Positions 2,723 through 61,451 of a DNA stretch of 64,000 nt are shown here, one piece after another. A program made the position numbers and the translations under genes. Numbering within the stretch: the first letter of the stretch is position 1; every line of letters starts with the position of its first letter. A model generated the notes under the pieces. The model saw only the letters and a list, made by a program, of their open reading frames with translations, ran no database searches and had not been told where the DNA came from. This stretch comes from Pirellulaceae bacterium. GTDB taxonomy: Bacteria; Planctomycetota; Planctomycetia; Pirellulales; Pirellulaceae. The stretch covers positions 4,884,419 to 4,948,418 of the forward strand of contig OZ247499.1 in assembly GCA_965233625.1 (NCBI GenBank), in the 5' to 3' direction.

Positions 2723-3589
2723 TTGAACGATAAGATTCGAATTTCCCTGCTGCGCGGTGTCTGCCAGCTTCCGGCGTATGTTGCGCATCACCGGGGTTTC
2801 TTCACGCGGGAAGGTATCGATTCATCCGTCAGCATCGCGCCGACTGCGTGGTTGATTCCGGATCAGCTTGCCAGGGGGGAAACGGACTTTGCGGTGATTC
2901 CGTGGACTCGTGTGGCGGTCGCCAGCAGTGAGTCTCCGCTGGTTCTTCTCTCTGGATCAGGCTGTGAAGAGGCGGCGGTGGTTGTGCGGGCGGGTCTGAC
3001 CGTTGATGAGGTGCGGTCCGTCGCAGTGCCCCGCGAAGGTGGCATGAAGGACCTGACCGCCATGGGGCTGCTTGAGAGTCTGAACTGGTCCCGGGACAAG
3101 GTGCAGCAGTTGCGGTTCCCTTCCGGCGACGGCGCCATTATCTGCCTGAACGGCAAAGGCTCTGACGCGGCAAGCATGATCGAGCCCTACGCAACGATGA
3201 TGGAAGTTGTCGCGGGATGTACCGTTGTCCGCCGGACCGGTGACCTCTGGCCGGGGGCGCCTGGCTGCTCTCTGGCGACCAGCGCTGCCATGTTGAAGGC
3301 TGCACCCGATCTTGTGCAACGTGTTGTGAATGCGTACGCCGCGGCCACAACGTACGTACACAACCACCCCACTGAAGCGGCGGCAACCGGCGCCCCGGTC
3401 ATCGGCGTCCACCCTGATATTTTACTTAAGTCTTTGGATGCGAACCGGCCGGACATCAACGCCGTGCGGAACACCGGCGCGATGGATCAGATTCTGAAGC
3501 TGATGCTGGAGTTGGGGTACGTGGATGAAATCCCGCGTGATTATTCCGATCTAAGTTTTCTCGACCGCGCTCAACAGTGTGCAACGTAG
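2723..3589 (+). CDS. NMT1/THI5-like (SsuA/TauA-type) substrate-binding-fold protein, apparently without a signal peptide
   Basis: The N-terminus IRISLLRGVCQLPAYVAHHRGFFTREGIDSSVSIAPTAWLIPDQLARGETDFAVIPW matches the conserved start of NitT/TauT-family binding proteins. The start codon is uncertain, since the TTG at 2723 is the first in-frame start. The stop overlaps the downstream NRPS-like gene. Confidence 0.5.
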   Translation: MNDKIRISLLRGVCQLPAYVAHHRGFFTREGIDSSVSIAPTAWLIPDQLARGETDFAVIPWTRVAVASSESPLVLLSGSGCEEAAVVVRAGLTVDEVRSVAVPREGGMKDLTAMGLLESLNWSRDKVQQLRFPSGDGAIICLNGKGSDAASMIEPYATMMEVVAGCTVVRRTGDLWPGAPGCSLATSAAMLKAAPDLVQRVVNAYAAATTYVHNHPTEAAATGAPVIGVHPDILLKSLDANRPDINAVRNTGAMDQILKLMLELGYVDEIPRDYSDLSFLDRAQQCAT

Positions 3590-6230
3590 CGCACGCGATG
3601 GCGCTGGAAGCCATGAAGGCAAGTCCGTGAAGACCGCCAGACGCATGCGAACCGTTGTCGAGATGTGGAAGGCGGCCGTCGCCCAGCACCCCGGACGGAC
3701 GGCGGTCGTAGACGGCGCCAGTTCGTTGACCTACTGCGAACTCAACAGCCGCGTGCGTAAATGGGAATCGCGGCTGCGGGCGGTGCGGACGGAGACGGCG
3801 TTCGTCGCTTTGCACTTGCCACACCGGGCAGAGAGCATCGCCGCCCTGCTGGGGATTTTAGCTGCGGGGAGGGCGTTCGTAGCTATCGATCCCGCCACAC
3901 CCGTCACACATCGCTGCGCGCTGCTTGATTATGCGCAGGCACGCGTGGTGATCGGGATGGGAAGTCATGCTGACGAATTACGTGACGCGGGATGGGACGG
4001 CGAATTTATAACCGCAACCGGCGCCGACGCAGTTTCGCCTCAGGAAATGGAAGACGGGGCTTGCGATCTGCAAAGCCGGGCGGCGCTTTGTTTCACGTCC
4101 GGGTCTTCAGGGAATCCCAAAGGTGTGGTGACGCCCCACCGCACGTTTGCTTTTGCCGCGCAAAATCTGCATGCGATGTTCGAGTTCCGGCCGGAGGACC
4201 GGCACGCACTGCTGGCTCCGCTGGCGGTCGCATCAACGCATGCGCAGGTTTTTGCACCGCTGGCCGCAGGGGCGACTATCTGTATGTTGGAGGCGCGCTT
4301 GCACAGTCTCTCTCGTCTGGCCGCCTGGCTTCAGGAGGAAGGCGTCACCACTGTACAGACCGTGCCGTCGCTTGCGCGGGCGCTGTTCAGCGAAGCTGCC
4401 AGCGGCGCCGGCTGGCCAGCAATGCGTGCCTTAAAAACCGGTGGCGAGAGCACGACGATCGCGGATGTGCAACTGTTTGAAAGCGTGCTTCCGGAAGGCG
4501 CCACGCTGATTAACGGGCTGGGAATCACAGAGGCCGGCTGCAATGTGTGCTGGTTCCGCCGGCAGAATGGCTCCAAGCTTGGTGGGCAACTTATGCCCAT
4601 CGGAGTTCCTCCAGATGATATTGAAATTGTCATCGAAAACGCCGAAGGCGCCATCGCTGCCTGCGGAGAGCCTGGGCAGATCGTTGTGCGTTCGCCGATG
4701 TTGCCCACCAGCTATTGGCGCGATCCTGCGAAAACCGCCGCGGTTTATCGTGACCTGCCTGAGCGCGAAGGATGGCGTGAACTTCGTACAGGAGACACCG
4801 GCCGCTGGCGCGATGATGGGCAGCTTGAACATCTGGGCCGGTTGGATCAGACCGTGAATGTGCGAGGACACCGGGTCTGCCTTGTCGAAGTCGAAGCCGC
4901 CCTGAATGACACCGGACTACTATCTGGCGCCGTTGCCTTTACGGAAGATTCCGGCAGCGGAACCCGGTTATGTGCAGCGGTTACCTTCCGGCCCGGCGCA
5001 GAGACGGACGATTCAATTCTGCGGAGCAGGCTGGCGCAGAAGCTGCCCGGCTATATGGTTCCCGCGGTGCTCCAGATTGTTGAACGTCTACCGCGTCTCG
5101 AAAACGGAAAAATCGATCGCAGTCAATTTGCTTCCGGCAACCAATCAGCAGCCGTTGAATTGCCGGCGCCACGCGACGCACTGGAACAGACCTTGCATGG
5201 CCTGTTTAGCCGTGCTCTGCAGAAGAAGCCACTGGCACTGGAAGCTTCCTTCTTTGACGAAGGTGGTGACTCGCTGGTTGCTGCGGCTTTGTTCGCATCG
5301 ATTAAGAGAGTGTTTGACCGCGATCTTCCGCTGACCGATCTGGTGGCGCATCCGTCGGTGAAATCCCTTGCGGAACACATGCGTTCAACCGGAACACAGG
5401 CACACCCGGCCATCACTTTGCTGACACCTTACCCGGAGGAAAATGCGCAGAACATTTTCGTGTGGCCTGGTGCGGGTTCCGACACGTTGGCGCTCTATCC
5501 GCTGGCCCGGAATTTAGGCGCCTCGCACGCAATGTACGGAGTTCAACACCGGGGCGCTGACGGGACACGTCAGTACGATCTGACGGTGGAAGACGCAGCT
5601 TCCCGCGGCGTTCAACTTGTACGCCGCGTCCAGCCACAGGGTCCGTATGCGCTTTGTGGCACATCGTACGGTGGACTTATAGCGCTCGAAGTCGCGCGCA
5701 AATTACAGGTGCAGGGTGAGACCGTCAATTTCCTGGCAATGCTCGATAGCTATTCGCCGGGCTACCCGCGGCGACGCGCCGACCTGGGGTTGCGCGACAG
5801 GCTGGCGCTGTGGAGCCGTAAATTCCGGCCGTTCTCTCAGCGGGATAAACCCGGCCTGGCAGTGCTGCGCAAAGGGTTGCATGAGCAATGGCAGCGTTTT
5901 GTTGCGAGGCGGTTCGTCCAGCGACCAGATCCAGACACGGAGCCGCTGCCGATACCTATCCGGTTCCTCTACTTGCAGGAGGCCTGCTTCATTGCCAGCC
6001 GGGCTTACCGTCCTGCCGACTATCACGGAGAGGTCCACTTCTACACGGTTGCAGAGCCTACGAATACGAGGTTCTTTGAACGTGACGCCGCGCATGGATG
6101 GTCCCAATATCTCAAGGGCGCCCTACATATCGAGACCATTCCCGGCAGGCACTCGCAGCACATTAAAGAGCCACACGTGGCCGCACTCGCGGAGAAACTT
6201 CGCAACCGGCTCAATGAGTTACGGGAGTGA
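3579..6230 (+). CDS. NRPS-like single module: adenylation (AMP-binding) - PCP - thioesterase
   Basis: The adenylation core motifs are FTSGSSGNPKGVV (A3), TGD...GRLDQTVNVRGHRV (A7/A8) and NGKIDR (A10). The PCP carries FFDEGGDSL. The C-terminal alpha/beta-hydrolase TE carries GTSYGG (GxSxG). The start is either the GTG at 3579, overlapping the upstream gene, or the ATG at 3645. Confidence 0.85.
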   Translation: MQRSARDGAGSHEGKSVKTARRMRTVVEMWKAAVAQHPGRTAVVDGASSLTYCELNSRVRKWESRLRAVRTETAFVALHLPHRAESIAALLGILAAGRAFVAIDPATPVTHRCALLDYAQARVVIGMGSHADELRDAGWDGEFITATGADAVSPQEMEDGACDLQSRAALCFTSGSSGNPKGVVTPHRTFAFAAQNLHAMFEFRPEDRHALLAPLAVASTHAQVFAPLAAGATICMLEARLHSLSRLAAWLQEEGVTTVQTVPSLARALFSEAASGAGWPAMRALKTGGESTTIADVQLFESVLPEGATLINGLGITEAGCNVCWFRRQNGSKLGGQLMPIGVPPDDIEIVIENAEGAIAACGEPGQIVVRSPMLPTSYWRDPAKTAAVYRDLPEREGWRELRTGDTGRWRDDGQLEHLGRLDQTVNVRGHRVCLVEVEAALNDTGLLSGAVAFTEDSGSGTRLCAAVTFRPGAETDDSILRSRLAQKLPGYMVPAVLQIVERLPRLENGKIDRSQFASGNQSAAVELPAPRDALEQTLHGLFSRALQKKPLALEASFFDEGGDSLVAAALFASIKRVFDRDLPLTDLVAHPSVKSLAEHMRSTGTQAHPAITLLTPYPEENAQNIFVWPGAGSDTLALYPLARNLGASHAMYGVQHRGADGTRQYDLTVEDAASRGVQLVRRVQPQGPYALCGTSYGGLIALEVARKLQVQGETVNFLAMLDSYSPGYPRRRADLGLRDRLALWSRKFRPFSQRDKPGLAVLRKGLHEQWQRFVARRFVQRPDPDTEPLPIPIRFLYLQEACFIASRAYRPADYHGEVHFYTVAEPTNTRFFERDAAHGWSQYLKGALHIETIPGRHSQHIKEPHVAALAEKLRNRLNELRE

Positions 6231-11778: not shown

Positions 11779-11988
11779 CGCGGTTTCCCTCCTTAGAAGT
11801 CGCTGAAAACATCCTGTTTTTGAAACAACTGAACCTAGGGCGCGGTACGGGTGACTCCGCGACCGGTACAGCCGATGGGAAACTTTAGGCAAAAGCTGAA
11901 TTTTTTTCCAGATCAATCGAATAGCGTCTGCGGTGCGTTTTGCCGCATAAAACAGCCCTTTGAGAACACCTGCTACTTGGAGATCCAC

Positions 11989-12369
11989 ATGGACTACTTT
12001 GACTTCTTCTTTCCAGAACAGGCGCAAGCCGCCCATCTACGCAGACTTGCCAGCCGGCCGACCGCTGTTGTGCGTTCGTCCACAGACGACGGGCAGGCAG
12101 CCGAGATTCAATCGCTGCGGGAAGATGTGAATTTTCTCACGCTCGTCATCGCGGCGTTACTGCGCCGCTCTACCGAGACCATGAGCATGGCCGACGTGCA
12201 GGACCTTCTGACAGAGATCGACGGACTCGATGGTGTCGCCGATGGCGGGCTGGATACCGGCGTGCTGCGCGGCATTCTTGGTGTGCTGAAGGTGCAGAAG
12301 GAAGAAGAAGCAAAGCCAGACCACCCGGCGTTCAACATCAAAACAACACCGCGCTACCGCAACAGGTAA
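11989..12369 (+). CDS. hypothetical small protein (126 aa), divergent from the SMC-like ATPase gene
   Basis: The ATG at 11989 is preceded by 'ggag' 9 nt upstream. No motifs were recognised. The gene ends 7 nt before the miniature PRE copy. Confidence 0.35.
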   Translation: MDYFDFFFPEQAQAAHLRRLASRPTAVVRSSTDDGQAAEIQSLREDVNFLTLVIAALLRRSTETMSMADVQDLLTEIDGLDGVADGGLDTGVLRGILGVLKVQKEEEAKPDHPAFNIKTTPRYRNR

Positions 12370-30191: not shown

Positions 30192-30230
30192 TCCCCTCAC
30201 CCCAGCCCTCTCCCCAGAGGGGCGAGGGGG
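30192..30230. repeat. ~40-bp 'cccctcaccc(c/t)a(g/a)ccctctcccc(a/g)gaggggcgagggg' element, copy 1
   Basis: The sequence is ctcccctcaccccagccctctccccagaggggcgaggggg. The same motif occurs at 40109, 60395 and, degenerate, 49398. Confidence 0.7.
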
Positions 30231-40108: not shown

Positions 40109-40147
40109 CCCCCTCACCCTAGCCCTCTCCCCGGAGGGGCGAGGGGA
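40109..40147. repeat. ~40-bp 'ccctcaccctagccctctccccggaggggcgagggga' element, copy 2
   Basis: Read directly from the sequence, 57 nt after the stop at 40051. Confidence 0.7.
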
Positions 40148-41367: not shown

Positions 41368-41461
41368 GAGCAGCATCCGCCGTTAGCACCGCACACAAGA
41401 AGAACAGCACAGACCTGGTAGGCAGGACGCTTACCGTTTGATTATCGCATGGAGGCGACAG

Positions 41462-44400
41462 ATGAGCTGGCTCCGCAAAATTACACGGAAACTCTGGAAG
41501 AAGCCGGCAGGCAACGCCTGCTGCGATTCCAACGCCAACTCCACCGGGCGCGTCTGCGGGTTCGAAGAGATGGAACCGCGGCGGATGCTGGACGCAGACC
41601 CCATTCAGATCGGCGCCGTGTTCCTGGAAACAGACGACGGCGCCGACACACAGGCCGATGTCTTCGAGATCAGCTTTGAAGGCGGCGCCGCCGGGACGCA
41701 GCTGAAAGAGGTTTATATTGACCTGGATCAGACACCCGGTGGAACGCCCGGTATCTTGCAGGCGCCTGATCTGTTCTTCGACACGGCTGATACTGGTTTT
41801 GGCAGCCGCGAAGCGCATGCGTTTCAGGTCGTTAACGGCGCTGGTGACGGCATCGACAGCGTGCAGGCCGAAGTCGTCGACGGCACCTCGCAGTTGAAGC
41901 TGACGTTCGAAGGCTTCGACGCGGGTGAGAAATTCGTCTTCAGCATCGACGTCGATCACGCCAACCGCACGTTTATCAACGACAACTTCGACCTGCTCAA
42001 TACGGGCAACCCCAACGACCTGACGGCGGCTGAACTTTCCTACATCAACGACAACTCATTTGACTCGCTGGCGTCTGGGCGTGAGTTCGCCACGTCGCAG
42101 TTCCACGCTACCTTCGTGGCGCCCGGCTTTGCCGAGACAACCGGCATGGGCCGTTATGCCGACGATTACAACTTCAACGGAACCACGTTGCAGTTGACCG
42201 GCGATAGCGACACCAACCAGCCCAACCGCACCGACGGTGTGCACTTTCAGCTGGAGCAGGAAGAACTGCCCGTCACTATCAGCGGCCGCGTGTTCCACGA
42301 CCGCGACTTCAACCTGGTGCAGGACGGAACCGGCGCAGATGAAGATCACGGCATCGCCGGCGTTGAGCTATCTCTGCTGAAGCTGAACGAAACCACCAAC
42401 CAGTACGAAGACACCGGCCACACCGCCACCACCGACATCAACGGCGACTATCTGTTCGGCGAAGACCTGGGCCTGGGCTCTGGTACTTACAGTGTGGTCG
42501 AAACACAGCCGGGCGATTATCCGTACAGCGTGGGCGCCATTCCCGGTACGGTTGAAGGCGCCACGTCCGGCGTTGTGGGGCCGTTTGATAACAACGTGAT
42601 CGAACAGATCGTCATCCCGCTGGGCGGACAGGATTCGATCAACAACGATTTTGCCGAAGCCAAGCCGGTTGAGATCAGCGGCTTCGTCTATCACGACCGC
42701 AACGATAACGGCATCCGCGAAACGGGCGAAGAAGGTATCGAAGGCGTCACCATCCGCCTGCTGCCTATCAACACGGTTTCGCTGGAAACGCCGCGCGAGA
42801 TGCAGACCGGCGCCGATGGTTCTTACTCGTTTGAAGGTCTGGCCCCCGGCGAGTACGAAGTTTACGAGATCCAGCAGCCAACCGGTTACATCGACGGTAA
42901 AGACACCGCTGGCAAAATCGGATCGGACACAGTTGGCGTTGCTGGCAACGAACAGATCACCGAGATTTTCCTGCCCAGCGATTCTAAGGGTGTGGAATAC
43001 AATTTCGGTGAGATTCAGGAAGCACGCATCAGCGGCAACGTGCACCTTTCGACGCCCGAAGGCGAATGCTTTGAAGATAACCCCAGCACGCCTTACGTGC
43101 CTATTCCAGGCGTCCGGGTTGAGCTGACAAACCTTGACACCAATGAAGTCCGCCACACGTTTACCGATCAGAACGGCGATTACTCGTTCGACGGTCTGCC
43201 GCCGGGCAACTACAAGGTGGTTGAATTCACGCCGGCAGATGTGCTGGATGGCGGCGCCCGCGTCGGCGAAACGCCTGGTCCTGGCGATGGCATCCTGGAC
43301 CCGGCCGATCCTTCCAACATCATCACCAACATCACGCTAGAGCCCGGCGCCGTCGCCGTAAACTACGACTTCTGCGAGCATCTACCCGCCGAGATTGCCG
43401 GTAATGTCTACCACGACCGCAACAACAACGGCCTGCGTGAAACGGGTGAAGAAGGTATCGGCGGCGTCACCATTATTCTCCGCGACGCTGCGACCGGCGA
43501 CTTCATTTCCGACACCACCACGGAAACTGATGGCTCGTATAAGTTCGAGGGGTTAACCCGCGGCGATTACACGCTCGAAGAAGTGCACCCCACTGCCTAC
43601 ACGGACGGCAAAGATACGGCTGGCACCGTCGGCGGCACGACGCACGGCGTGGCGACGAATGATCTAATCAGCGACGTCCATCTCGACTTCGGCGAGGCGG
43701 GCATCGAGTACAACTTTGGCGAACGTCTGCTGGCGGAAATCAGCGGTAACGTCCACCTCTCGACACCCGATGGCGACTGCTTCGAAGATCTGCCGCAGGG
43801 CGAAGAATACCGCCCCATTGAAGGCGTGCTGATCCGGCTGATCAACGAAGACACCGGCGCCGAGATTACGCAGCTGACGGACTCTGAGGGCAACTACTCT
43901 TTCAAAGATCTTGACCCCGGCACTTACACCGTTGTCGAAACGACGCCGACGGGCTTGATCAACGGCGGGGCACGTGTTGGCGAAACACTGGGCGACGCCG
44001 ACGGCGTGCTCGACGCGCTGCGGCCGGGCGATGCGATCACCAGCATCGAACTAGAGCCCGGCGCCGTTGCCGTGAACTACGACTTCTGCGAGCACGAACC
44101 GGCTTCGATCAGCGGTCACGTGTACCACGATGCCAACAACGATGGCCTGTTCGACAAGATCAACGAAGATCCCATCCCAGGCGTCCGTGTGATTCTTCGC
44201 GATGGCAATGGCAACTTCATTGCTGAACGCACGACCGAAACCGACGGCAGCTACAGCTTTGAAGGCCTGGAAAAAGGCGAGTACATCCTCGAAGAAATTC
44301 ATCCCAATGCCTGGATCGATGGTAAAGACACCATCGGTACGGTCGACGCCATTCCTAACGGCTTTGCTGGCGATGATGAGTTCCTGGCCATCAATCTGCT

Positions 44401-50647: not shown

Positions 50648-51227
50648 CGTTATGTTCCTATGGCGCCTAGCGGTGGGTCGCCCGTATTTCGCGGTATGGC
50701 TGCCGCCCTGCCCGGTAAGGGAGCTTTACGAATCGAAGACGGCGGACTGCTGAAATCTACGACACAGAATCCGCGCCGTCCAACCAAACTGCTGCGTTCT
50801 ACCGCAGTGCTTGTTTTGAAGCATTTTCGCCGCACGATGGGCTGCAAAATGTGGAGTTTCTGCATCAAATCTTCGCGTTGAAACCAGCAATGAAGCGTTT
50901 CGTAGGCTTCGCCAGCAGTGGCGCGCTGTTTGCCTGTAGATCAGTGCCCCGGCTGATTGCTGCGGCATACGTCGCCGGTTCAAAAAATCCACCGCCGGGC
51001 TGGAATAATCGCTGCGAACAGAGCCTTCCGTAAAACCCGCTCAGATATCACACGGACGGGGAAACTAACACGTTCCCACGTCAACTTCCTGCAATTACTA
51101 TCGGTACGGACACCCGCAGAATTCGTCGAACGCAAAACGTCCGCAGACCATCACATTGTGGACACTCCGACACTATTTTCATTCGCCTCTTAACCGGTCG
51201 AAGCTGCCGGCTAGTCAATATCCTGCC

Positions 51228-54200
51228 ATGCAACAGCCGTCACCCACTGAAAACAATCCGGGCGCCTCTTTCCCTCTCCAGGTAAGCACGGAACAATACC
51301 CATTCTTGCGCGACCATCAGGTGCAAGAGGCAACGCTACTTCCGGGCGCCTTGTATGTGTCAGTAGCGTCGGAGGCGTTTATCGCTGCCAGGCAGGATAC
51401 GAACAACGCTGAGGTGTTGCAGTTAACGCAAGTGAACTTCCTGCGGCCACGATCACTCAGCGGCACGGAACAGGTAACGCTGCAGGCCAACGATGTGCAG
51501 CCGCAACCCAACGCACCGCTGTGCCAGGGTTCTGTCACTGACGGTGAAAACACCCTGGTCGAATTTTACGCAGCCGCGCTACCGGCGCCTTCTATCAACC
51601 GCCTGCCGGCGCCTGCTATTTTAGAACAGGATGTCTCGTCCGCCTTTTACCAGCGGCTTCAGGAAGTAGGCAACCAGTACGGCGCGGCCTTTCAACCGCT
51701 GCGCAACTTACAGACCAAACCGGAGCAGGCTGCTGCCACGGTGATGGTTCCTGCCCCTGCGGCGCCGTTACGAATCCACCCGGTGCTGATCGACGCCCTG
51801 GTGCAGACGCTTGCGGCCTGCGTGGCCGAACCCGAGGGCCCCTATCTGCTATCCGCCGTCGCGAACATCGAATTAGATCTACGGGCGTTGCAAAGAGCGT
51901 TGTCCACCGGCGGCACGTTGCATAGCATTGCGGCCCGGAAGAGCAGCCACGAAGACGCGTCGCAGATAACGGGCGACGTGCAGCTGCTTGCCGCCAACGG
52001 TGAAGTGCTGATCGCCATGCAGGATGTCTCGCTGGTCTACCCGCAGGCAAAGCCACCAGAGCAGCGCATTGGCATTGCGGCCACGTTTACCGCCGAACCA
52101 CTGGCCGACGCCGTTGCATTCTGGGGCGCGCACTTTCAGGCGCCGTTGCAGGCTTCCTTCGCCCCGTACAACCAGGTGCATCAGCAACTGCTCGACCCGG
52201 GCAGCGTGCTTGCCCACCCGCAGAACGCGGCCAACGTCCTTCTGTTCTGCTGGCAGGACTGGGTCCAGAAAGCCTTCCGTCCGCTTACCGCCGACGAGAC
52301 GGCCCGGCAGCGTGTTGAAGCAGAACACGCCACGAAGAAGCTACCCGCGGGTATTCAGGTCGCCCATCTCAATCCGTACGAAACCGATTACGTCTTCAAC
52401 GAGATCTGGGTCGACCGCTGTTATTTGAAGCACGGCGTCTCGCTCGAGGATTGCCAGTGTGTGCTCGACATCGGCGCCAACATCGGACTGTTTTCGCTAT
52501 TCGTAAAACAGCACGCGCCGGATGCGAAAGTTTACTCGTTCGAACCATCGCCCCGTGCCCATGCGGCCCTTACCGCCAACGCGGAAATGTATGGCGGCGG
52601 TTCTATCACGCCGTTGCCGTGCGGCGCCGGAGAGCACGATGGCCACGCGACCTTCACCTTTTACGAGGCATCTTCCGTCTTCTCCAGCTTCTACGCTGAC
52701 GCGGGCGAAGATCACGCGGCGGTCGAAGCCATCGTTGCCAACATGGTGCGGACATCGCTGGGCGAAGACGCGGCACAGGACGCCATCGACGCGGCCGTTG
52801 CCAGTTTTATGAACGGCCGCATGAACAGCCAGACACTCCAGTGCGAGCTACGCAATGTTTCCAGCATCATCCGTCAGCACAACATCGACCGCATCGATCT
52901 GCTGAAGCTGGATGCGGAGAAAAGCGAACTGCCCGTGCTACGTGGCATCGCCGATGAACACTGGCCCATGATCCGGCAGGTTGTCGTAGAAGTTCACGAC
53001 CGCGAAGGCCCTGTGCTGGCGGAAGTGCAAAGCATTCTCGAAAGCCGTGGCTTTGAAGTGGCGGTGGAAGAAGAAACCTTGCTGCATGGCTCCGGGCTAT
53101 TCAACGTTTTTGCGATCCGCCCTGGGCAGAACAAAACCGCTGCCCAGAAGCAGCAAGACGCGGCAGATGTTTCCGCCCGTGTGGAAGAATTCGTCGCCAA
53201 CCTGCAAGCTTTCGCCTCGACCAATATCACGCCCTTGCTGCTAATGAGTTGCCCGCCGCATGGCGAAGAGGGAAGCAGCGCCGACCATCAGCAGGTAGAA
53301 AGGCAGATCGCCGCCGCGCTGCAACCTTACCGCCATATTCAATTGCTTACGTCGCAGGAGATCAGCCAGCTTTACCCGGTTGCGGAAATTCACGACGCGC
53401 AAGCCAATGCCCTGGGACATGTGCCTTATACCAGTGGCTACTTCACTGCGCTGGGCGCCTGCGTCGCCCGTCACTGGCTGAAGCATCGCGCACCGGCGCC
53501 CAAGGTGATCGTCCTGGACTGTGACCAGACCTTGTGGGGCGGCGTCTGTGGCGAAGACGGCGCCAGCGGCGTCACGCTCGATGAACATCGCATCGCTTTC
53601 CAGCAGCGGATGGTGGAGCTGATGAACCAGGGGCTGCTGCTGGCCGTCTGCAGTAAGAACACGCCGGCGGATGTCGAGGCCGTGTTCAACGGGCGTGAGA
53701 TGCCGCTCAAACGCGAACACTTCACCGGCTGGAAAGTGAACTGGAATGCGAAGTCGCAGAACCTGCACGAACTTGCCGCGGAGCTGAACCTCGGCCTGGA
53801 TAGCTTCATCTTCATCGACGACAACCCGCTGGAATGCGCCGACGTAGCTGCCAACTGCCCCGGCGTGCTGGTGATGCCATGCCCGGCGGAAAGCCGCGCA
53901 ATCCTACCCATGCTGGACCACGTCTGGTCGCTCGACCTTCAATCCAGCAGTGACGAAGACAGCCGTCGCACGCAGATGTACCGCGACGAAGCCAGCCGGC
54001 AGCAGGCCCGCGCGGCGGCGCCGACGCTCAAGTCGTTCATCGACAGCCTGCAATTACAGGTCCGCATCGCGCCCGTCACTCCCGCTCAGTTACCGCGTGC
54101 GGCGCAACTTACGCAACGCACCAATCAATTCAACGCATCCACCATCCGCCGCAGCGAAGCGGAACTGCAACAGCTTCTGGACAACGGCCACAGCGTGCAC

Positions 54201-55001
54201 ATGGTTCACGTGCAGGACCGCTTCGGCGATTACGGCGACACCGGCCTGTTGATCTTCCAGATAGCGGCCGGCGTGCTGCATGTAGACACGCTGCTTCTTA
54301 GCTGCCGCGTTCTGGGCCGCGGCGTAGAGCATCAACTGCTCGCGCACCTGGGACGCATCGCCATGGAACAAGGCGCCACGCGGATTGAAATCCCGTTCGA
54401 GCCGACAGAGCGGAACCAACCAGCCCGCGACTTCCTCGCTTCGCATTGCATTGGCCAGCCGTTTACCACCAGCGCAGAATCCGCCGCCAGCGTGCAGTAC
54501 AACCCGCAAGCAGCCGCCACGGCGACGGCCGCACCACTTCCACAACAACAACCCTCACGGCGTCAGTTGTTCAACGAACCGCTTGCGCAGATCGCCACAG
54601 AGTTGCAGACCGTTGAGCAGATCAGCCAGGCGACGCAGGCAACGCAGCGGCGCCCGCGGCCCGCCGAATTACCCGCCGAGACGCCGCCTGCCAACGACCT
54701 GGAACGGAACATCGCTGCCATCTGGTGCGAACTGTTGAAGCTCGAAAGCGTCGGCGTGTGCGACGCGTTTAAAGATGTAGGCGGCACCTCGCTGCTGGCT
54801 GTTCAGTTGATCGCCCGGCTGAAGTCGTCGCTGGATATCGACCTGCCTGTTGTGCAACTTTTCGAACGCCCCACCATCCGCCAGATCGCTGCCTACCTCA
54901 GCAACTCCGCTGACAGCCAGCCTGCGGAAGACGCCGCCGCCACAGCCCGCGACCGCGCCAGCCGCCGTAAGGCCCGCGCCGCATCCCGCCGCCGCGGGTA
55001 A
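51228..55001 (+). CDS. PKS loading protein: PKS-type dehydratase (DH) - FkbM-family methyltransferase - FkbH-like (HAD phosphatase-type glyceryl transferase) - ACP
   Basis: DH motif: LRDHQVQEATLLPGALYV (HxxxGxxxxP). FkbM motif: VLDIGANIGLFSLFV. FkbH motif: VIVLDCDQTLWGG (DxDxT) with FIFIDDNPLE. Carrier protein: AFKDVGGTSLLAVQLIARL. The first ATG is at 51228; the reported ORF start at 51156 is a TTG. Confidence 0.8.
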   Translation: MQQPSPTENNPGASFPLQVSTEQYPFLRDHQVQEATLLPGALYVSVASEAFIAARQDTNNAEVLQLTQVNFLRPRSLSGTEQVTLQANDVQPQPNAPLCQGSVTDGENTLVEFYAAALPAPSINRLPAPAILEQDVSSAFYQRLQEVGNQYGAAFQPLRNLQTKPEQAAATVMVPAPAAPLRIHPVLIDALVQTLAACVAEPEGPYLLSAVANIELDLRALQRALSTGGTLHSIAARKSSHEDASQITGDVQLLAANGEVLIAMQDVSLVYPQAKPPEQRIGIAATFTAEPLADAVAFWGAHFQAPLQASFAPYNQVHQQLLDPGSVLAHPQNAANVLLFCWQDWVQKAFRPLTADETARQRVEAEHATKKLPAGIQVAHLNPYETDYVFNEIWVDRCYLKHGVSLEDCQCVLDIGANIGLFSLFVKQHAPDAKVYSFEPSPRAHAALTANAEMYGGGSITPLPCGAGEHDGHATFTFYEASSVFSSFYADAGEDHAAVEAIVANMVRTSLGEDAAQDAIDAAVASFMNGRMNSQTLQCELRNVSSIIRQHNIDRIDLLKLDAEKSELPVLRGIADEHWPMIRQVVVEVHDREGPVLAEVQSILESRGFEVAVEEETLLHGSGLFNVFAIRPGQNKTAAQKQQDAADVSARVEEFVANLQAFASTNITPLLLMSCPPHGEEGSSADHQQVERQIAAALQPYRHIQLLTSQEISQLYPVAEIHDAQANALGHVPYTSGYFTALGACVARHWLKHRAPAPKVIVLDCDQTLWGGVCGEDGASGVTLDEHRIAFQQRMVELMNQGLLLAVCSKNTPADVEAVFNGREMPLKREHFTGWKVNWNAKSQNLHELAAELNLGLDSFIFIDDNPLECADVAANCPGVLVMPCPAESRAILPMLDHVWSLDLQSSSDEDSRRTQMYRDEASRQQARAAAPTLKSFIDSLQLQVRIAPVTPAQLPRAAQLTQRTNQFNASTIRRSEAELQQLLDNGHSVHMVHVQDRFGDYGDTGLLIFQIAAGVLHVDTLLLSCRVLGRGVEHQLLAHLGRIAMEQGATRIEIPFEPTERNQPARDFLASHCIGQPFTTSAESAASVQYNPQAAATATAAPLPQQQPSRRQLFNEPLAQIATELQTVEQISQATQATQRRPRPAELPAETPPANDLERNIAAIWCELLKLESVGVCDAFKDVGGTSLLAVQLIARLKSSLDIDLPVVQLFERPTIRQIAAYLSNSADSQPAEDAAATARDRASRRKARAASRRRG

Positions 55002-55049: not shown

Positions 55050-58000
55050 ATGTATCAGCCAGGTGAATTTGATATTGCCATCATCGGACTCGCCGGGAAG
55101 TTTCCCGGTGCGGATTCCGTAGATGCGTACTGGCGGAATCTGGTGGAAGGCCGCGAATGCATCCGCTTCTTTTCCGATGAAGAACTCGACCGCGCCGGCG
55201 TGCCGCGCGAGATTTATCAGCGGCCCGGATACGTCAAAGCGGCGCCGGTGATCGAAGGACCCGGCCTGTTCGACGCCCGCTTCTTTGGCTACTCGCAGCG
55301 CGATGCAGAGCTGATGGACCCGCAGCATCGCGTGTTCCTGCAATGCTGTTATCACGCGCTGGAAAACGCGGGCCATACGGCTGATGGCTTCGACGGGCGA
55401 GTCGGTGTTTACGCCGGCTCTGCGATGAACACTTATTTTCTCTACGCGAATCTTGCCGAGCGGTTTGCCGAAGATTATCTGCCGACGCTGCTTGCCAGTG
55501 ACAAAGATTTTCTTTCGACACGTGTCTCGTATCAGTTGAACCTGACGGGACCCAGCCTGACCATTCAAACCGCTTGTTCAACTTCGCTAGTGGCGGTTCA
55601 CACCGCGTGTCAGAGCCTGATTAACGAAGAATGCGATATGGCGATGGCCGGTGGTGTTTCCATCCGCGTGCCGCACATCGCAGGGCATCAGGCAGAGGAG
55701 GGCAGCGTGTTCTCGCCCGATGGCCATTGCCGCCCGTTCGATGCGAGCGCCGCCGGCACCATCTTTGGCAGCGGCGCCGGCGTGGTGGTGCTGAAACGCG
55801 CGATAGATGCCGTGGCTGATGGTGACACAATTATGGCAGTCATCAAAGGCTCAGCCGTGAACAACGACGGCAACCGCAAGTCCGGCTACACGGCGCCCGG
55901 TGTCGAGATGCAGTCGCGGGCCGCGATTGAAGCCTATGCCGCCGCCGGGATTGAACCAGCGATGATCTCGTACATCGAAGCGCACGGCACCGGCACGTAT
56001 CTGGGCGACCCGATTGAAGTCGCCGCGCTTACTTCGGCCTTCCGCACGCAGACGCAGCAGCAACAGTTCTGCCGCATTGGCTCGGTGAAATCCAACATCG
56101 GCCACCTCGACGCCGCTGCCGGTGTCGCGGGGCTGATCAAGACCGCACTCGCCCTGAAGCACCGCACGCTGCCGCCCACGCTGCACTACACCACGCCCAA
56201 TCCGCAGATCGACTTCGCCACGTCGCCGTTCATCGTCAACCACCAGCTAACACCGTGGGCAACATCCAGTGCCGCGGATGATATCCGTTACGCTGCGGTC
56301 AATTCATTAGGCATCGGCGGCACGAATGCGCATCTGGTGCTGGAAGAAGGCCCGCGTGTGGAAGCTGCCTCACCAGGCGCAGAGCGGCCGCAACTGCTGG
56401 TTCTTTCCGCCAGAACAGAAACAGCGCTCGACGCCACGGCTGCCAAGGTTGTGTCACACCTGGTGGAAGACGGGACAACGTCGCTTGCCGATGCAGCCTT
56501 TACGTTACAGACCGGCCGCAACCGCATGGAGCACCGCCGCAGCGTTGTGGTGACGGACCGGGACGATGTTGAACTGCTCGCGGGTCAGCCCCGCGCCGCC
56601 AACCGGCTGGACAACCCGGACGTGATCTTCATGTTCCCCGGCCAGGGCGCCCAGTACGCTGGCATGGCCCGCGGCTTGTACGAACAAGACGCAGAATTCA
56701 AACGGCAGATCGATACGTTTCACGATCAGTTACTGGCCGAAAACAACATCGACTTACGCGGCGTTCTGTTCCCTGCCGCGGGTGAAGAACAGCAAGCTGC
56801 CGAATTGCTGCGGCGGACGCATGTAACGCAGCCCGCGTTGTTCGCCATTGAATACGCGCTGGCGCGGTTGTTGATGCGGTGGGGCGTTCAGCCCGCGGGC
56901 GTTACCGGGCACAGCGTTGGTGAATATGCGGCGGCGTGTATTGCTGGAGTGATGCAGCCGGCGGATGCGCTACGGCTGGTCGCGCTGCGCGGCGCCATGA
57001 TCAGCGAACTGCCTGAGGGCAAGATGCTGGCTGTTGCGTTACCGGGTGAAGCGGTGCAAGAGCGGCTGGACGCGCGGCTGGAACTTGCGGCCATGAACAG
57101 CCCCGGCGCCAGCGTCGTGGCAGGCGACGCTGCGATGGTGGACGCGTTTGAAGCGGAACTAAGCAACGCCGGCGTGCCGTGCCAGGTTTTGCGGACCTCG
57201 CATGCGTTTCACTCCGGCATGATGGCGCCGGTCCTAGAAGACTTCCGCGCGGCGGTTGAAAAGGTGCAACTCCGCCCCGCGCAACTGCCTATTTATTCCA
57301 CTGTCACCGGCGCCACGGCTGATCCCGCGGCCTACGCGCAGCCGCAGTTCTGGGTGGATAACATCCGGCAGCCCGTGCGGTTTTCAGAGGCCGCGGCGGA
57401 ACTTCTGAAACAACCCAACCGCGTGCTGCTTGAGACCGGCCCCGGCCAGACGCTCAGCGGTTTCATCCGCGAACAACCGGGCCACAACCAGCATCATGTG
57501 ATATGCACGTCGCTGCGCCATCCGCGCGAAGACGCTGACGATTACGCATTTCTACTGCGGACCCTCGGCAAGCTATGGGAGGCGGGTGTCACACCCGATT
57601 GGCAGAACATTCACGGAGCCAACCGGCAACGTGTGCCCCTGCCGGGATATGTTTTTGACAACGAGAATTACTGGCTCGCGCGCAGCACAACCGTAGGCAG
57701 CACTTCAACGACTACGACGCCGGCGGAACCATCTGAACCCGCCGCGCGGCCACAGATCCCGCGCCGGCCTGTCCCGCAGTGGCTCTACAAACCGAAGTGG
57801 CAAGCCGCTGAAACCGGTGCGTCTGACGAACCTTCGACCCTCATCAACCGCAGTACGGACAGCACCTGGCTGGTGTTTGGCGGGCGTGAATGGCTGCCGC
57901 AGGAAACGGCGAATGTTGTGACGGTTAAGCCGGGTGAGATGTTCCAGCAGATCAGCCGTCACGAATATCGCATCAACATCCATGCGGCGGAAGACTACCG

Positions 58001-60326
58001 GAAACTGCTTTCGTCGCTGGAAGAAAGTGACATACTTCCGTCACATGTACTGCATACCTGGATGACCGGGGAGGATGTGGAAGACGCACAGGAACTGCAA
58101 CGTGGGCTGAATAGCCTGACTTTCTTTACGGCAGCTACCGGCAATGTCTGCCCGCTTCATCAGCTTCAACTCTTCACGATTACTCACAAGGCGATTCCCG
58201 CCACACAGGATGACATCGTCCTTCCCGCCCGCGCTGCCGCAATCGCCTGTTGCAAGCTGATTCCGCAGGAGCACCCTGGCGTTGCGTGCCGTCACATCGA
58301 CCTGCCGGATGACATAAACGCGTCACACCGTTCTTACGCGTTGCAAAAGATGCTCGCACAAGCTGCAGCCCTTGATGGCGGATCATACGCCTACCGTGAC
58401 GGAAAGCTGCTGACTGAATGTTTTGAACCGTGCGAAGCTCCATCCGCCGGGGTAACAAAGCGTCTACGCGATGGCGACACGTATCTTCTGTTTGGCGGTC
58501 TGGGCGGTATTGGTCTGACTCTTGCCCGTGAGATTGCCCGGCAGGTGCGTGCGAATCTGGTGCTGGTTAGCCGTGGACCGTTACCGTTGCGGGACGAAGC
58601 TTCGCCGCGTGACTTGAAGAAACTCAAGATCATAGATCAGATCCGCGCCGCCGGGTGTCAGGTTCTGACAGTTCAGGGCGACGTCAGCCGCAGCGATTCT
58701 ATTGCTCAAGTGCTACAACAGACGGCTGACCATTTTGGCGCGGTGCACGGGGTGATTCATGCGGCGGGCGTGAGTGGGCCGCTGCGGCCGCTGCAGCAGA
58801 GTTCGCAGGAGGATATCGCGGCCTGCATGCCAGCAAAATTGCACGGTGTAGCGCTGCTGGAAGAATTGCTGGCGGATCAGCCGCTGCGGTTCATTCTTGG
58901 ATGTTCAACCATTGGCGCCACGTTGCATCATCACCGGATTGGTGAGCTGAGTTATCTGGCCGCCAACATGGCGCTGGACGCGTTTCCGTTTCATCAACGC
59001 ACGCGTGGCGATGGCGTCTTCCGGCAGACGATTCAGTGGGATGAGTGGAGCGAAGCGGGAATGGCGGCGGACCTTGCCGCTTCGGGTGGTAACCCGTCGT
59101 CTCCGCTGTTTGATATCGAAGACACGATTTCCCCGGAAGAAGGCGCCAAGGCGTTTGCGGCGGCGCTGGCGACGGATGAGCCGCGCGTTATTGTTTCGGT
59201 GCATGACCTGATAAAGCGTCTTGCCACCGCGGACGCGTCAGAGAGCCATACGGAAGCATCTCAGCAGGCCGCAATTTCTGCTTCAGCGGCGAGTGACACT
59301 ATTGCGTCACTGACGCAGATCTGGTCGGAACTGCTGGGAGCCAGAGATATCCGCCCGGGTGATGACTTCTTTGAACTGGGCGGTAGTTCCTTGCTGGCGG
59401 TGCGGATGAATTCGCAGATTGCCGACAGACTTGGCAAGAAGCTGCCCGTCGGTTCGATCCTTGAACTGCGGACGATTACGCGGCTTGCGGAATTGATCGA
59501 TGGCGGGCAGAAGAAATCGCATCCTTCGCTGGTGGCGATTCAACCCAAGGGCGCCCGCCCGCCGTTGTTTTTGATGCATGCCGCGGGCGGCAACGTGATG
59601 TTCTACCGGCAGCTTGCCGCACACCTTCCTTCGGACCAACCGGTTTATGGGCTTCAATCGCAGGCACTGATCGATGGCGAAGCCACCTTCCGCAGCATCG
59701 AAGAAATGGCCAGCGGGTACGCAGCAGCGATGCTCGCGATGCAACCAGATGGACCCTATCTAACCGGCGGATATTGCATGGGCGGCACCTTGGCGCTGGA
59801 GGTCGCACAGCAGCTGCGGCAGCGTGGTAAAGAAGTGGCCGTCGTAGCGATGTTTGAAACTTACAACTGGGAGAAGTGTAAGCGCCGCAAGCCGATGAGC
59901 GGCGGACGCTTCTGGCTTGAGAAGGTTTACTTCGCGCTTCGCAACGTGTTTGCAGCAGGTAGCGGCGCCTCGAAATTTGTGCGGGAGAAACTAAGTGTCG
60001 TCGGTGCGCGGCGGAAGGTGTGGCGGGGAGAACTCCAGCGTAAAGTGCATTCCGCGCAGGCCAGCGATCAGCAGATGCTGGCGCAGCTCTGGGAGAATAA
60101 CGACCGGGCCGCCATGCAATATCGCCCGCAGCCTTACGATCTGCCTGTGACGATCTTCCGTCCGGAGGTGCGGCACGCTGTGTTCCGCGATTGTGAGTTC
60201 GACCAGGTCAACTGCCACATCGAAACGCTGCCCTGCTTCCCGGCCGCTATGATGCTGGAGCCGTTTGTCGCAGAACTCGCCCGCCGGTTGAACCAGCGCA
60301 TCGAGCAGGCGATTCCGACAGCGTGA
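55050..60326 (+). CDS. type I polyketide synthase module KS-AT-KR-ACP-TE, with a Cys-type thioesterase
   Basis: KS: TACSTSLVAVHTACQSL, EAHGTGT, NIGHL. AT: GHSVGEYAAAC. KR: LLFGGLGGIGLTLAREIA ... SYLAANMALDAF. ACP: FFELGGSSLLAVRM. TE: GYCMGGTLALE, where Cys replaces Ser in GxSxG. The ATG at 55050 lies 49 nt after the upstream stop. Confidence 0.9.
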   Translation: MYQPGEFDIAIIGLAGKFPGADSVDAYWRNLVEGRECIRFFSDEELDRAGVPREIYQRPGYVKAAPVIEGPGLFDARFFGYSQRDAELMDPQHRVFLQCCYHALENAGHTADGFDGRVGVYAGSAMNTYFLYANLAERFAEDYLPTLLASDKDFLSTRVSYQLNLTGPSLTIQTACSTSLVAVHTACQSLINEECDMAMAGGVSIRVPHIAGHQAEEGSVFSPDGHCRPFDASAAGTIFGSGAGVVVLKRAIDAVADGDTIMAVIKGSAVNNDGNRKSGYTAPGVEMQSRAAIEAYAAAGIEPAMISYIEAHGTGTYLGDPIEVAALTSAFRTQTQQQQFCRIGSVKSNIGHLDAAAGVAGLIKTALALKHRTLPPTLHYTTPNPQIDFATSPFIVNHQLTPWATSSAADDIRYAAVNSLGIGGTNAHLVLEEGPRVEAASPGAERPQLLVLSARTETALDATAAKVVSHLVEDGTTSLADAAFTLQTGRNRMEHRRSVVVTDRDDVELLAGQPRAANRLDNPDVIFMFPGQGAQYAGMARGLYEQDAEFKRQIDTFHDQLLAENNIDLRGVLFPAAGEEQQAAELLRRTHVTQPALFAIEYALARLLMRWGVQPAGVTGHSVGEYAAACIAGVMQPADALRLVALRGAMISELPEGKMLAVALPGEAVQERLDARLELAAMNSPGASVVAGDAAMVDAFEAELSNAGVPCQVLRTSHAFHSGMMAPVLEDFRAAVEKVQLRPAQLPIYSTVTGATADPAAYAQPQFWVDNIRQPVRFSEAAAELLKQPNRVLLETGPGQTLSGFIREQPGHNQHHVICTSLRHPREDADDYAFLLRTLGKLWEAGVTPDWQNIHGANRQRVPLPGYVFDNENYWLARSTTVGSTSTTTTPAEPSEPAARPQIPRRPVPQWLYKPKWQAAETGASDEPSTLINRSTDSTWLVFGGREWLPQETANVVTVKPGEMFQQISRHEYRINIHAAEDYRKLLSSLEESDILPSHVLHTWMTGEDVEDAQELQRGLNSLTFFTAATGNVCPLHQLQLFTITHKAIPATQDDIVLPARAAAIACCKLIPQEHPGVACRHIDLPDDINASHRSYALQKMLAQAAALDGGSYAYRDGKLLTECFEPCEAPSAGVTKRLRDGDTYLLFGGLGGIGLTLAREIARQVRANLVLVSRGPLPLRDEASPRDLKKLKIIDQIRAAGCQVLTVQGDVSRSDSIAQVLQQTADHFGAVHGVIHAAGVSGPLRPLQQSSQEDIAACMPAKLHGVALLEELLADQPLRFILGCSTIGATLHHHRIGELSYLAANMALDAFPFHQRTRGDGVFRQTIQWDEWSEAGMAADLAASGGNPSSPLFDIEDTISPEEGAKAFAAALATDEPRVIVSVHDLIKRLATADASESHTEASQQAAISASAASDTIASLTQIWSELLGARDIRPGDDFFELGGSSLLAVRMNSQIADRLGKKLPVGSILELRTITRLAELIDGGQKKSHPSLVAIQPKGARPPLFLMHAAGGNVMFYRQLAAHLPSDQPVYGLQSQALIDGEATFRSIEEMASGYAAAMLAMQPDGPYLTGGYCMGGTLALEVAQQLRQRGKEVAVVAMFETYNWEKCKRRKPMSGGRFWLEKVYFALRNVFAAGSGASKFVREKLSVVGARRKVWRGELQRKVHSAQASDQQMLAQLWENNDRAAMQYRPQPYDLPVTIFRPEVRHAVFRDCEFDQVNCHIETLPCFPAAMMLEPFVAELARRLNQRIEQAIPTA

Positions 60327-60394
60327 CAGCGGGTAAATCGCTGTGCTAAACGCTTCAAGCGGGGCGGTCGTGTTGAGATTGGCTGGATGCGGAG

Positions 60395-60434
60395 CCCCCT
60401 CACCCTAACCCTCTCCCCGGAGGGGCGAGGGGAC
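60395..60434. repeat. ~40-bp 'cccctcaccctaaccctctccccggaggggcgagggga' element, copy 3
   Basis: Read directly from the sequence, 70 nt after the PKS stop. The spurious ORF 60387.. translates it as PLTLTLSPEGRGD. Confidence 0.7.
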
Positions 60435-60569
60435 GAGATGCTGCGCCTGGTTAACGTCGCAACATTGAGTTCATCGTTGCGGACCAGCAATTGTTTGCTT
60501 CGTAACACTGGCTCTTATACACTCGCCAGCCAGGGTAACGTGTTCATTACATCATTTGACGAGGCGGAT

Positions 60570-61451
60570 ATGACGACGCGACTGCTTGCCTGCTTGTGCC
60601 TTATTCTTGTCACTGCTGCCACCGCCTACGGTGAAGAGCCGGCTGGCGGTGCGTTGAAAATCGCCTGGAAGGACAATTACCTTTCGATCTTTGGCGACTT
60701 CCCCGGCAAAGAAATGCGGACGCATTACCTGGAGGCTTACTGCCGCCCCGGCTCGACGGACCGGGACTGGGGCGAAACGGTGATTAAGCACCGCGCTGAA
60801 CTTCTTTCTGCCAGCGAAGATGGTCGCGTGATTAAACTTCGCGATACGCTCGCCGACGGCGTGATTGTGGAGCACGTGATTACGGCGGGCGATGGCGAAG
60901 TGGACTTCCGCCTGACGGCGACGAATCCGACCAGCAAGGCCTCGCAGGCGCATTGGGCGCAGCCTTGCATCCGTGTTGATAAATTCACCGGCGCCGGTCG
61001 GGAAGACGCCCGTGTTCTGGTGCCGAAGTACGCCCGGCAGTGCTTCATTTTTCTCGATGGCGAACTCACGCGGCTGCCGACGCGCCCGTGGGCGGATAAG
61101 GCGCGCTACATTCCCGGGCAGGTTTACCGGCCCGCCCATGTGCCTGCTGATGATGTGAACCCGCGGCCGGTCAGTTCACTGACGCCCTCCAACGGGCTCA
61201 CAGGCGCGTTTACTGCCGACGGTAAACAGTTGATGGCGGTCGTCTGGGAGCCTTACCAGGAACTGTTTCAGGGCGTCATCGCCTGCATACACAGCGATTT
61301 CCGCCTGGGCGGTTTGAAGCCCGGTGAGACCAAGAAGATCCGCGGCAAGATTTATATCATGCCGGCGGATATCAAAGCGTTGGTCAAACGCTACGAAGCG
61401 GACTTCCCGGAGCAGGTAAAACAAGCTGCTGCGAGCCGGGATGATTCGTAG
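60570..61451 (+). CDS. secreted hypothetical protein (293 aa)
   Basis: The ATG at 60570 is preceded by 'gagg'. The signal peptide is MTTRLLACLCLILVTAATAYG. Confidence 0.6.
   Translation: MTTRLLACLCLILVTAATAYGEEPAGGALKIAWKDNYLSIFGDFPGKEMRTHYLEAYCRPGSTDRDWGETVIKHRAELLSASEDGRVIKLRDTLADGVIVEHVITAGDGEVDFRLTATNPTSKASQAHWAQPCIRVDKFTGAGREDARVLVPKYARQCFIFLDGELTRLPTRPWADKARYIPGQVYRPAHVPADDVNPRPVSSLTPSNGLTGAFTADGKQLMAVVWEPYQELFQGVIACIHSDFRLGGLKPGETKKIRGKIYIMPADIKALVKRYEADFPEQVKQAAASRDDS

Follow-up and report, generated by a model that had tools for sequence, protein, structure and literature searches.

A thioesterase domain with a cysteine at the nucleophile position and no canonical histidine in a Pirellulaceae polyketide synthase

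Thioesterase (TE) domains set the form in which the product of an assembly line exits (acid, macrocycle, oligomer or strained ring), and are prime targets for engineering. Three TEs with a Cys nucleophile have been solved, and two of them, ObiF and SulM, shaped the idea that such a Cys means strained-ring formation. The present study concerns the C-terminal TE of a single-module type I polyketide synthase (PKS), which is encoded in a stretch of 64,000 nucleotides from a Pirellulaceae bacterium (assembly GCA_965233625.1, contig OZ247499.1, positions 4,884,419 to 4,948,418; the whole stretch is called the window below). A preliminary description of this DNA had pointed out a Cys in place of the usual Ser nucleophile, and had suggested that a beta-lactone is released.

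The ObiF and SulM TEs share four hallmarks (PMC6668435, PMC11298585): their nucleophile is Cys, their acid is an Asp at position II (after beta7) while position I carries none, they depend on the canonical His, and they group with type II TEs. The position I residue of ObiF1 is Gly, the ObiF variant H1284A was severely impaired, and the thioester intermediate was found to favour strained-ring formation (PMC6668435). SulM additionally has a Gln-Cys-Asn motif, and AB3403, which has an acid at position I, was described as the only other solved Cys-TE (PMC11298585).

The TE of the window has only the first of these hallmarks. Its Cys was confirmed at the nucleophile position, its canonical catalytic His was found to be absent, and the idea derived from ObiF and SulM does not transfer to it. 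The domain is read here, with a probability of about 0.55, as a working offloading domain of the type I thioesterase fold that belongs to a large, monophyletic and uncharacterised clade, in which a GYCxGG Cys goes together with loss of the canonical His. Its release chemistry is most likely non-canonical. The missing His is new with respect to the preliminary description, as is the finding, from sequence comparison, that Cys and missing His together mark such a clade.

Nucleophile, acid and missing histidine

The PKS is encoded by the open reading frame (ORF) 55050..60326 on the + strand (1758 aa) and has the domain order ketosynthase (KS), acyltransferase (AT), structural subdomain of the ketoreductase (psiKR), ketoreductase (KR), acyl carrier protein (ACP) and TE. 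The TE is C-terminal and directly follows the PP-binding domain. Pfam PF00975 (Thioesterase) matched aa 1505-1609 with 95.3 bits against a cut-off of 26.4, the match spanning profile positions 2-107 of 226 only. Local numbering of the TE starts at aa 1490 (local 1). The features discussed below are as follows.

59517-60323, + strand (aa 1490-1758): TE, a type I thioesterase-fold domain assigned to the Cys, His-less clade
59577..59591, + strand: HAAGG loop, His1510-Gly1514, after strand beta3
59769-59786, + strand (aa 1574-1579): nucleophile elbow GYCMGG, with Cys1576 (local 87) encoded by TGC at 59775-59777
59856..59858, + strand: Glu1603 (local 114), acid at position I, directly after strand beta6 (model strand 107-113)
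59934..59936, + strand: Ala1629 (local 140), in the long lid helix; His in 92% of the clade
60174..60176, + strand: His1709 (local 220), four residues after strand beta7 in the position II region; Tyr or Phe in the clade
60240..60242, + strand: Pro1731 (local 242), which replaces the canonical catalytic His in the loop that follows strand beta8 (model strand 231-238)

A Ser-type control was available in the window itself, in the TE of a stand-alone NRPS-like protein (3579..6230, + strand, 883 aa; NRPS, nonribosomal peptide synthetase) with adenylation, peptidyl carrier protein and TE domains (A-PCP-TE) and no adjoining assembly-line genes. This TE is fully canonical, with GTSYGG (nt 5658-5675), a downstream Asp (LDS) and a His (GRH). 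It had been described as nearby; the motif is indeed present, but the gene lies about 50 kb away and does not belong to the cluster of the PKS.

Four independent tests agreed on the position of Cys1576. In BLASTP the TE aligned end to end with the control TE (E = 4e-17), with GGYCMGG opposite CGTSYGG. A phmmer search of PDB sequences matched Cys1576 to Cys in AB3403 (GGWCFGG, E = 4e-23) and to Ser in Pks13 (GWSLGG), EntF and the skyllamycin TE. In a model calculated by AlphaFold from an alignment of 40 sequences (pLDDT, predicted local distance difference test, 90.9; pTM, predicted template modelling score, 0.90), strand 81-86, Cys87 and helix 88-102 form the classic strand-elbow-helix. Finally, GYCxGG was present in each of the 120 best matches from a 5.8-billion-protein collection, which share 41-47% identity with the query over the full domain. 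Cys1576 thus occupies the nucleophile position of a type I TE, and is due neither to chance nor to a sequencing error. The preliminary assignment of GYCMGG to the nucleophile elbow of the C-terminal TE therefore stands; the domain is a TE by its Pfam score, and its Cys aligns with the catalytic Ser of the canonical TE.

The remainder of the model shows strand 107-113 ending at Glu114, lid helices 118-201, strands 207-216 and 231-238, a loop, and helix 250-265, i.e. an alpha/beta-hydrolase core with the lid inserted between beta6 and beta7. The HAAGG loop follows model strand 17-20, and its residues H21, A23, G24 and G25 were invariant (alignment A1). By analogy with the alpha/beta-hydrolase fold, this loop probably contributes to the oxyanion hole.

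A downstream Asp and His had been proposed as a check on the triad, and this was borne out for the acid only. Opposite Glu1603, EntF, AB3403 and the control TE have Asp (MFETY stands against MLDSY of the control TE in BLASTP, and against DT in AB3403 and EntF), whereas the place of the His is taken by Pro1731. BLASTP aligned LPCFPAAMMLEP of the TE with IPGRHSQHIKEP of the control TE, with Pro1731 opposite the His; the family profile placed lpvyPagml opposite LPGDHSSIM of AB3403, where the query reads LPCFP against LPGDH; and a MAFFT alignment with His-bearing relatives gave the same replacement at position 242. Pro242 was invariant in the 120 best homologues. According to three independent alignments and the secondary structure of the model, the canonical catalytic His is absent, and Pro1731 stands in its place.

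His1723 (local 234, NCHIETLP) was dismissed as a candidate for the catalytic His: it lies inside strand beta8, the control TE has, besides its true GRH His, another His aligned with it, and P0122, the only close relative of the query, has Arg there.

The clade of Cys domains without the histidine

Of 1.84 billion cluster representatives searched exhaustively with HMMER, 355 proteins (50%-identity clusters) scored below E = 1e-30. The best 150 representatives yielded 179 TE domains, which were classed by the residues at the elbow and at position 242: 115 were Cys/Pro, 23 Cys/His and 18 Ser/His, and the few others were degenerate. When one genome was scanned for each GTDB species, at least 473 loci were obtained, and the TEs of the 80 retrieved comprised 63 Cys/Pro, 16 Ser/His and one Cys/His. 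In this search of genome contigs the single TE sequence found no relatives as a query, whereas the family alignment did. The Cys/Pro loci came mostly from Acidobacteriota, and also from Candidatus Entotheonella, Pirellulaceae, Ignavibacteria, Nitrospirae, Desulfobacteraceae, Syntrophales, Anaerolineales, Dehalococcoidaceae and Rhodothermales. Cys-TEs had been called rare, which is true of the characterised enzymes; among sequences they are not, since most of the 150 representatives inspected carry Cys.

A neighbour-joining tree was calculated for 176 related domain representatives with the diagnostic columns 87 and 242 left out. One clade of 120 members held 114 of the 115 Cys/Pro domains and no His-bearing domain; its other six members were also Cys domains without His at 242. 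Membership was defined by the G-Y-C-x-G-G elbow, by the lack of His at 242 (Pro), and by placement in the clade without those two columns. The query has the elbow and Pro242, and falls within the clade in the tree. The acid at position I is Asp or Glu, in roughly equal numbers. The residues that distinguish the clade are listed below, as the fraction of sequences that carry them in the clade and in the His-bearing relatives.

Residue 242, Pro: clade 1.00, His-bearing relatives 0.00
Residue 139, Phe: clade 0.91, His-bearing relatives 0.05
Residue 196, Asp: clade 0.84, His-bearing relatives 0.02
Residue 117, Asn: clade 0.82, His-bearing relatives 0.00
Residue 216, Pro: clade 0.84, His-bearing relatives 0.05
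Residue 26, Asn: clade 0.87, His-bearing relatives 0.17
Residue 91, Thr: clade 0.71, His-bearing relatives 0.02
Residue 220, Tyr: clade 0.70, His-bearing relatives 0.02
Residue 241, Tyr: clade 0.66, His-bearing relatives 0.05
Residue 140, His: clade 0.92, His-bearing relatives 0.32

The query has all of the class-specific residues N26, T91, N117, D196 and P216. The four polar ones are conserved in the class, and are placed near the active site by the alignment and the predicted secondary structure.

The domain that precedes the TE was an adenylation domain in 51 of the 115 Cys/Pro cases, a condensation domain in 28, a KR in nine (the query included), an AT in one and another domain in five; the remaining 21 were ACP-TE didomains or truncated. 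Thus 79 of the 115 follow NRPS adenylation or condensation domains. As the Cys/Pro TEs are found mostly on NRPS termination modules and only nine follow a KR, the Cys is read as a trait of the clade, inherited mainly from NRPS-terminal relatives, and not as an adaptation to beta-hydroxyacyl chains.

The Cys therefore marks a phylogenetically coherent clade, distributed over Acidobacteriota, Planctomycetota, Ignavibacteria, Entotheonella and others, in which the canonical His has been lost and most members belong to NRPS modules. No description of the combination of Cys and missing His was found in the searchable literature, and searches for TE domains without the catalytic His yielded nothing beyond reviews and the papers on ObiF and SulM. 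If the TEs of the clade are active, as their conservation suggests, their release mechanism has not yet been described. In that case a mining rule that equates a Cys-TE with a beta-lactone or beta-lactam would mis-annotate hundreds of clusters.

Several arrangements of related TEs were observed in the retrieved loci and in the proteins of the HMMER search. In Acidobacteria a recurrent pair was seen, in which a Cys/Pro ACP-TE didomain is followed about 2 kb downstream by a second, Ser-type TE match. It was present in L001 (10001-13351) and in about 17 others (L004, L005, L008, L015, L018, L024, L025, L027, L030, L031, L036-L038, L040, L051, L076). L001, the sole pair locus for which gene calls were read, has the order ACP-TE(Cys/Pro), a FemAB/Acetyltransf_6-like gene and ACP-TE(Ser), and adjoins sugar-nucleotide, glycosyltransferase, thiamine pyrophosphate (TPP)-enzyme and ATP-grasp genes. 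This pairing suggests that a Cys/Pro TE can act outside assembly lines, possibly in acylation. In L002 (1-11056) the second-best TE homologue (P0002, 47% identity) stands at the end of a hybrid NRPS-PKS line with condensation, adenylation and thiolation domains (C-A-T), then KS-AT-KR, then ACP-TE. This line is split by apparent frameshifts and is followed by an Acetyltransf_6-like fragment, echoing the FemAB association in Acidobacteria. Five large NRPSs of 2243-4515 aa (P0131, P0134, P0147, P0149 and P0162) have two Cys/His TEs each (GYCFGG with the canonical His). One of these TEs is sometimes internal (e.g. aa 1075-1351 of 3705), and several have Asn in place of Asp at the acid position.

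The two-gene cassette and its counterpart

The PKS gene is preceded on the same strand by a gene for a loading protein with dehydratase (DH), methyltransferase (MT), FkbH and ACP domains. The true start of this protein is probably the ATG at 51228. The domains of the two genes are listed below.

51156..55001, + strand: loading protein, DH - FkbM-type methyltransferase - FkbH - ACP (Pfam and NCBIfam)
51258-52034, + strand: loader DH (Pfam PS-DH), with HxxxExxxxP and DxxxQ readable in the translation
52461-53057, + strand: loader MT (Pfam Methyltransf_21; NCBIfam TIGR01444, fkbM_fam)
53493-54449, + strand: loader FkbH (NCBIfam TIGR01686, E = 7e-88)
54711-54899, + strand: loader ACP (Pfam PP-binding)
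55071-56189, + strand (aa 8-380): KS of the PKS (Pfam), motifs TACSTS, EAHGTGT and KSNIGHL
56625-57566, + strand (aa 526-839): AT (Pfam), motifs GHSVGE and HAFH
57906-58310, + strand (aa 953-1087): psiKR, the KR structural subdomain (Pfam)
58479-59051, + strand (aa 1144-1334): KR (Pfam), with GGLGGIG; Lys, Ser, Tyr and Asn present, no LDD motif
59310-59498, + strand (aa 1421-1483): ACP (Pfam PP-binding), GGSSL carrier site

The KS, AT and KR motifs of the PKS module are intact, and the module has no DH and no enoylreductase (ER). The AT is presumably malonyl-type, judging by HAFH and the usual rule. Since the KR is intact and no DH is present, the TE should receive a beta-hydroxyacyl thioester, and on this point the preliminary description is upheld. 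No second TE or other release enzyme is present within the two-gene cassette.

P0122 was the only close relative in the collections searched, with 52% identity in the TE. It belongs to a cassette on a metagenomic contig (L003) which has, in the same order, a DH-MT-FkbH-ACP gene and a KS/AT-KR-ACP-TE PKS, the latter divided as KS|AT-KR-ACP-TE by an apparent frameshift. Synteny with the window stops at the ends of the two core genes. Retention of the TE at this identity, in a syntenic two-gene cassette of a second organism, argues that the TE is under selection.

Query and P0122 both keep N26, T91, N117, D196, P216 and P242, and diverge from the clade at three sites, where the query has Ala140, His220 and Phe241 and P0122 has Phe140, His220 and His241. 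Within the clade His220 is confined to these two sequences. His1709 (local 220) is thus a candidate for a substitute base, and the only subclade-specific one. A clean compensatory swap of His140 for His220 was considered and kept as a weak lead only, because the change represents a single event and because eight other members without His140 have no His220.

A gene about 4 kb upstream of the cassette (41438-47191, + strand) encodes a 1917-aa protein with about ten SdrD_B / CarboxypepD_reg / SpaA-like beta-sandwich repeats. An SdrD_B protein is also encoded near the L003 cassette (L003 22908-24053); no synteny was detected, and this may be coincidence. Three copies of a 23-nt G+C-rich palindrome, CCTCTCCCCGGAGGGGCGAGGGG, lie on the + strand of the window at 30207-30229, 40124-40146 and 60410-60432, with 0-1 mismatch (0 expected). 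This element looks like a REP-like (repetitive extragenic palindrome) intergenic repeat. Its last copy lies just past the PKS stop codon, within the start of ORF 60387..61451, which follows the PKS on the 3' side. This ORF has no family match, begins inside the repeat element and may be mis-called.

Elsewhere in the window, a gene at 22746-25265 (- strand) encodes an 839-aa protein with WD40 repeats and a C-terminal caspase (Peptidase_C14) domain, and adjoins PSCyt1/PSCyt2/PSD1 genes of planctomycete type (20162-22549). Another, at 8080-12036 (- strand), encodes a 1318-aa protein with long SMC/AAA_27-like coiled coils and two C-terminal DUF4332 (helix-hairpin-helix) domains.

Release chemistry and comparison with known systems

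The established function of FkbH domains is to charge an ACP with a glyceryl unit taken from 1,3-bisphosphoglycerate, and the FkbH of the loading protein would place a glycerate-derived unit on its own ACP. The loader DH and FkbM-type methyltransferase may then modify this unit (predicted dehydration and O-methylation). Judging by its intact motifs, the single KS-AT(malonyl)-KR module would extend the unit once and reduce it to a short 3-hydroxyacyl-S-ACP, so that the TE would be presented with a short 3-hydroxyacyl thioester, of about C5. On the basis of fold, alignment and conservation, Cys1576 is predicted to take over the chain by transthioesterification and to form an acyl-S-enzyme thioester, with the HAAGG loop and the elbow backbone as the putative oxyanion hole and Glu1603 at acid position I. 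As no His follows beta8, deacylation would not proceed by the standard attack of His-activated water.

Within this reading there are two ways in which the thioester might be resolved. It may be held against hydrolysis and resolved by acyl transfer, either to an external acceptor or to the 3-hydroxyl of a second chain, and this route is slightly favoured. Thioesters are kinetically stable to water and reactive to amines and thiols; the clade-specific residues are hydrogen-bonding ones (Asn, Thr, Tyr, Asp) with no obvious general base among them; and most members end peptide lines, where aminolysis would be a natural route. Resolution by a non-canonical base, for which His1709 is the only subclade-specific candidate, is judged a little short of even. 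A broader proposal can be made tentatively and is, on balance, doubtful: the TEs with Cys and no His might form a distinct and widespread offloading class without the triad His, in which the thioester is held in a hydrolysis-resistant state and released by acyl transfer (aminolysis, thiolysis or esterification), and in which the planctomycete subclade rebuilt its active site once more through the His after beta7.

Some findings weigh against the reading of the TE as a working, His-less offloading domain of this clade. No characterised member of the clade was found. A comparison of the window with L003 revealed no candidate acceptor or partner enzyme conserved beside the cassette. The query itself lacks the clade-typical His140, Tyr220 and Tyr241, so that its chemistry may differ from that of the clade or be impaired. 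The change from His140 to His220 goes back to one evolutionary event and is known from two sequences, and TEs whose acid is at position I are reported to have their beta7 loop farther from the active site (PMC11298585), which weakens His1709 as a base.

The last two points also tell against a TE that hydrolyses or cyclises by means of a relocated base, in which a rewired triad Cys1576-His1709-Glu1603 would release the free 3-hydroxy acid. What speaks for such a triad is that His1709 is the only His common to query and P0122 besides that of the HAAGG loop, that it replaces Tyr/Phe220 in exactly the two sequences without the clade His140, and that it lies in the region after beta7 that provides a triad residue (Asp) in ObiF, SulM and RifR. 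The eight other clade members without His140 did not gain His220, and this alternative is considered unlikely. A catalytically dead or purely structural remnant, with release by another enzyme or spontaneously, would account for the loss of the canonical His, for the further loss of His140, Tyr220 and Tyr241 in the query, and for the restriction of the Pfam match to the N-terminal half of the profile. However, elbow, oxyanion loop and acid are strictly conserved across well over 100 clusters (50% identity) from several phyla, the model is confident and well folded, the domain has been kept in the orthologous cassette, and the cassette has no other TE or release enzyme. On account of this conservation a dead domain is highly improbable.

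Formation of a beta-lactone, by ObiF-like attack of the 3-hydroxyl on the acyl-S-Cys thioester, would agree with the Cys nucleophile and the preference of a thioester intermediate for strained rings, with an active-looking KR and no DH, which lead to a 3-hydroxyacyl chain, and with an expected product that is small, as with ObiF and SulM. It is nevertheless very unlikely. Both enzymes are distant in sequence and structure (ObiF1 matched in phmmer with E = 0.36 against 4e-23 for AB3403, and SulM gave no match at E <= 1), the acid is at position I instead of position II, the His needed by ObiF has no counterpart, the SulM motif is absent, and the clade is found mostly on NRPS modules without a KR. 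The alignment with ObiF and SulM that had been proposed as a check thus gave no specific support for beta-lactone release, and from these comparisons the Cys does not appear to be a signature of it. A working clade TE with non-canonical release remains the preferred reading, and the cassette, with one FkbH loader and one module, is unusually tractable for testing the chemistry.

With ObiF and SulM the TE shares the Cys nucleophile, the logic of a thioester acyl-enzyme, and small substrates with a beta-nucleophile. It differs from them in having Glu at position I, His1709 in the position II region, Pro1731 for the canonical His, and Tyr-Cys-Met where SulM has Gln-Cys-Asn. A chemical precedent for ester formation, and for that only, is offered by the polyhydroxyalkanoate (PHA) synthase PhaC, an alpha/beta-hydrolase with a G-x-C-x-G-G lipase box, in which (R)-3-hydroxyacyl chains are bound as thioesters to the elbow Cys and transferred to a hydroxyl nucleophile. 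The triad of PhaC is Cys-His-Asp, and the enzyme shows no detectable specific relationship to the TE.

The closest solved structures are TEs of the EntF/AB3403/NocB/Pks13 type, and the TE is closer to EntF-like TEs than to ObiF, SulM or type II TEs. Like the type I TEs EntF, Pks13, NocB and Skyxy, it follows a carrier domain and has its acid after beta6, and it agrees with them in fold, lid topology and HxxGG loop; those TEs have Ser-Asp-His with the acid at position I, whereas the TE of the window has Cys and no His. The closest single structure is AB3403 (ABBFA_003403) of Acinetobacter baumannii (PDB 4ZXH/4ZXI), which shares both the Cys and the acid at position I. AB3403 belongs, however, to an NRPS module with condensation, adenylation, PCP and TE domains (C-A-PCP-TE), whereas the module of the window is a PKS, and it keeps the canonical His (LPGDHSSIM) where the query and its clade have Pro.

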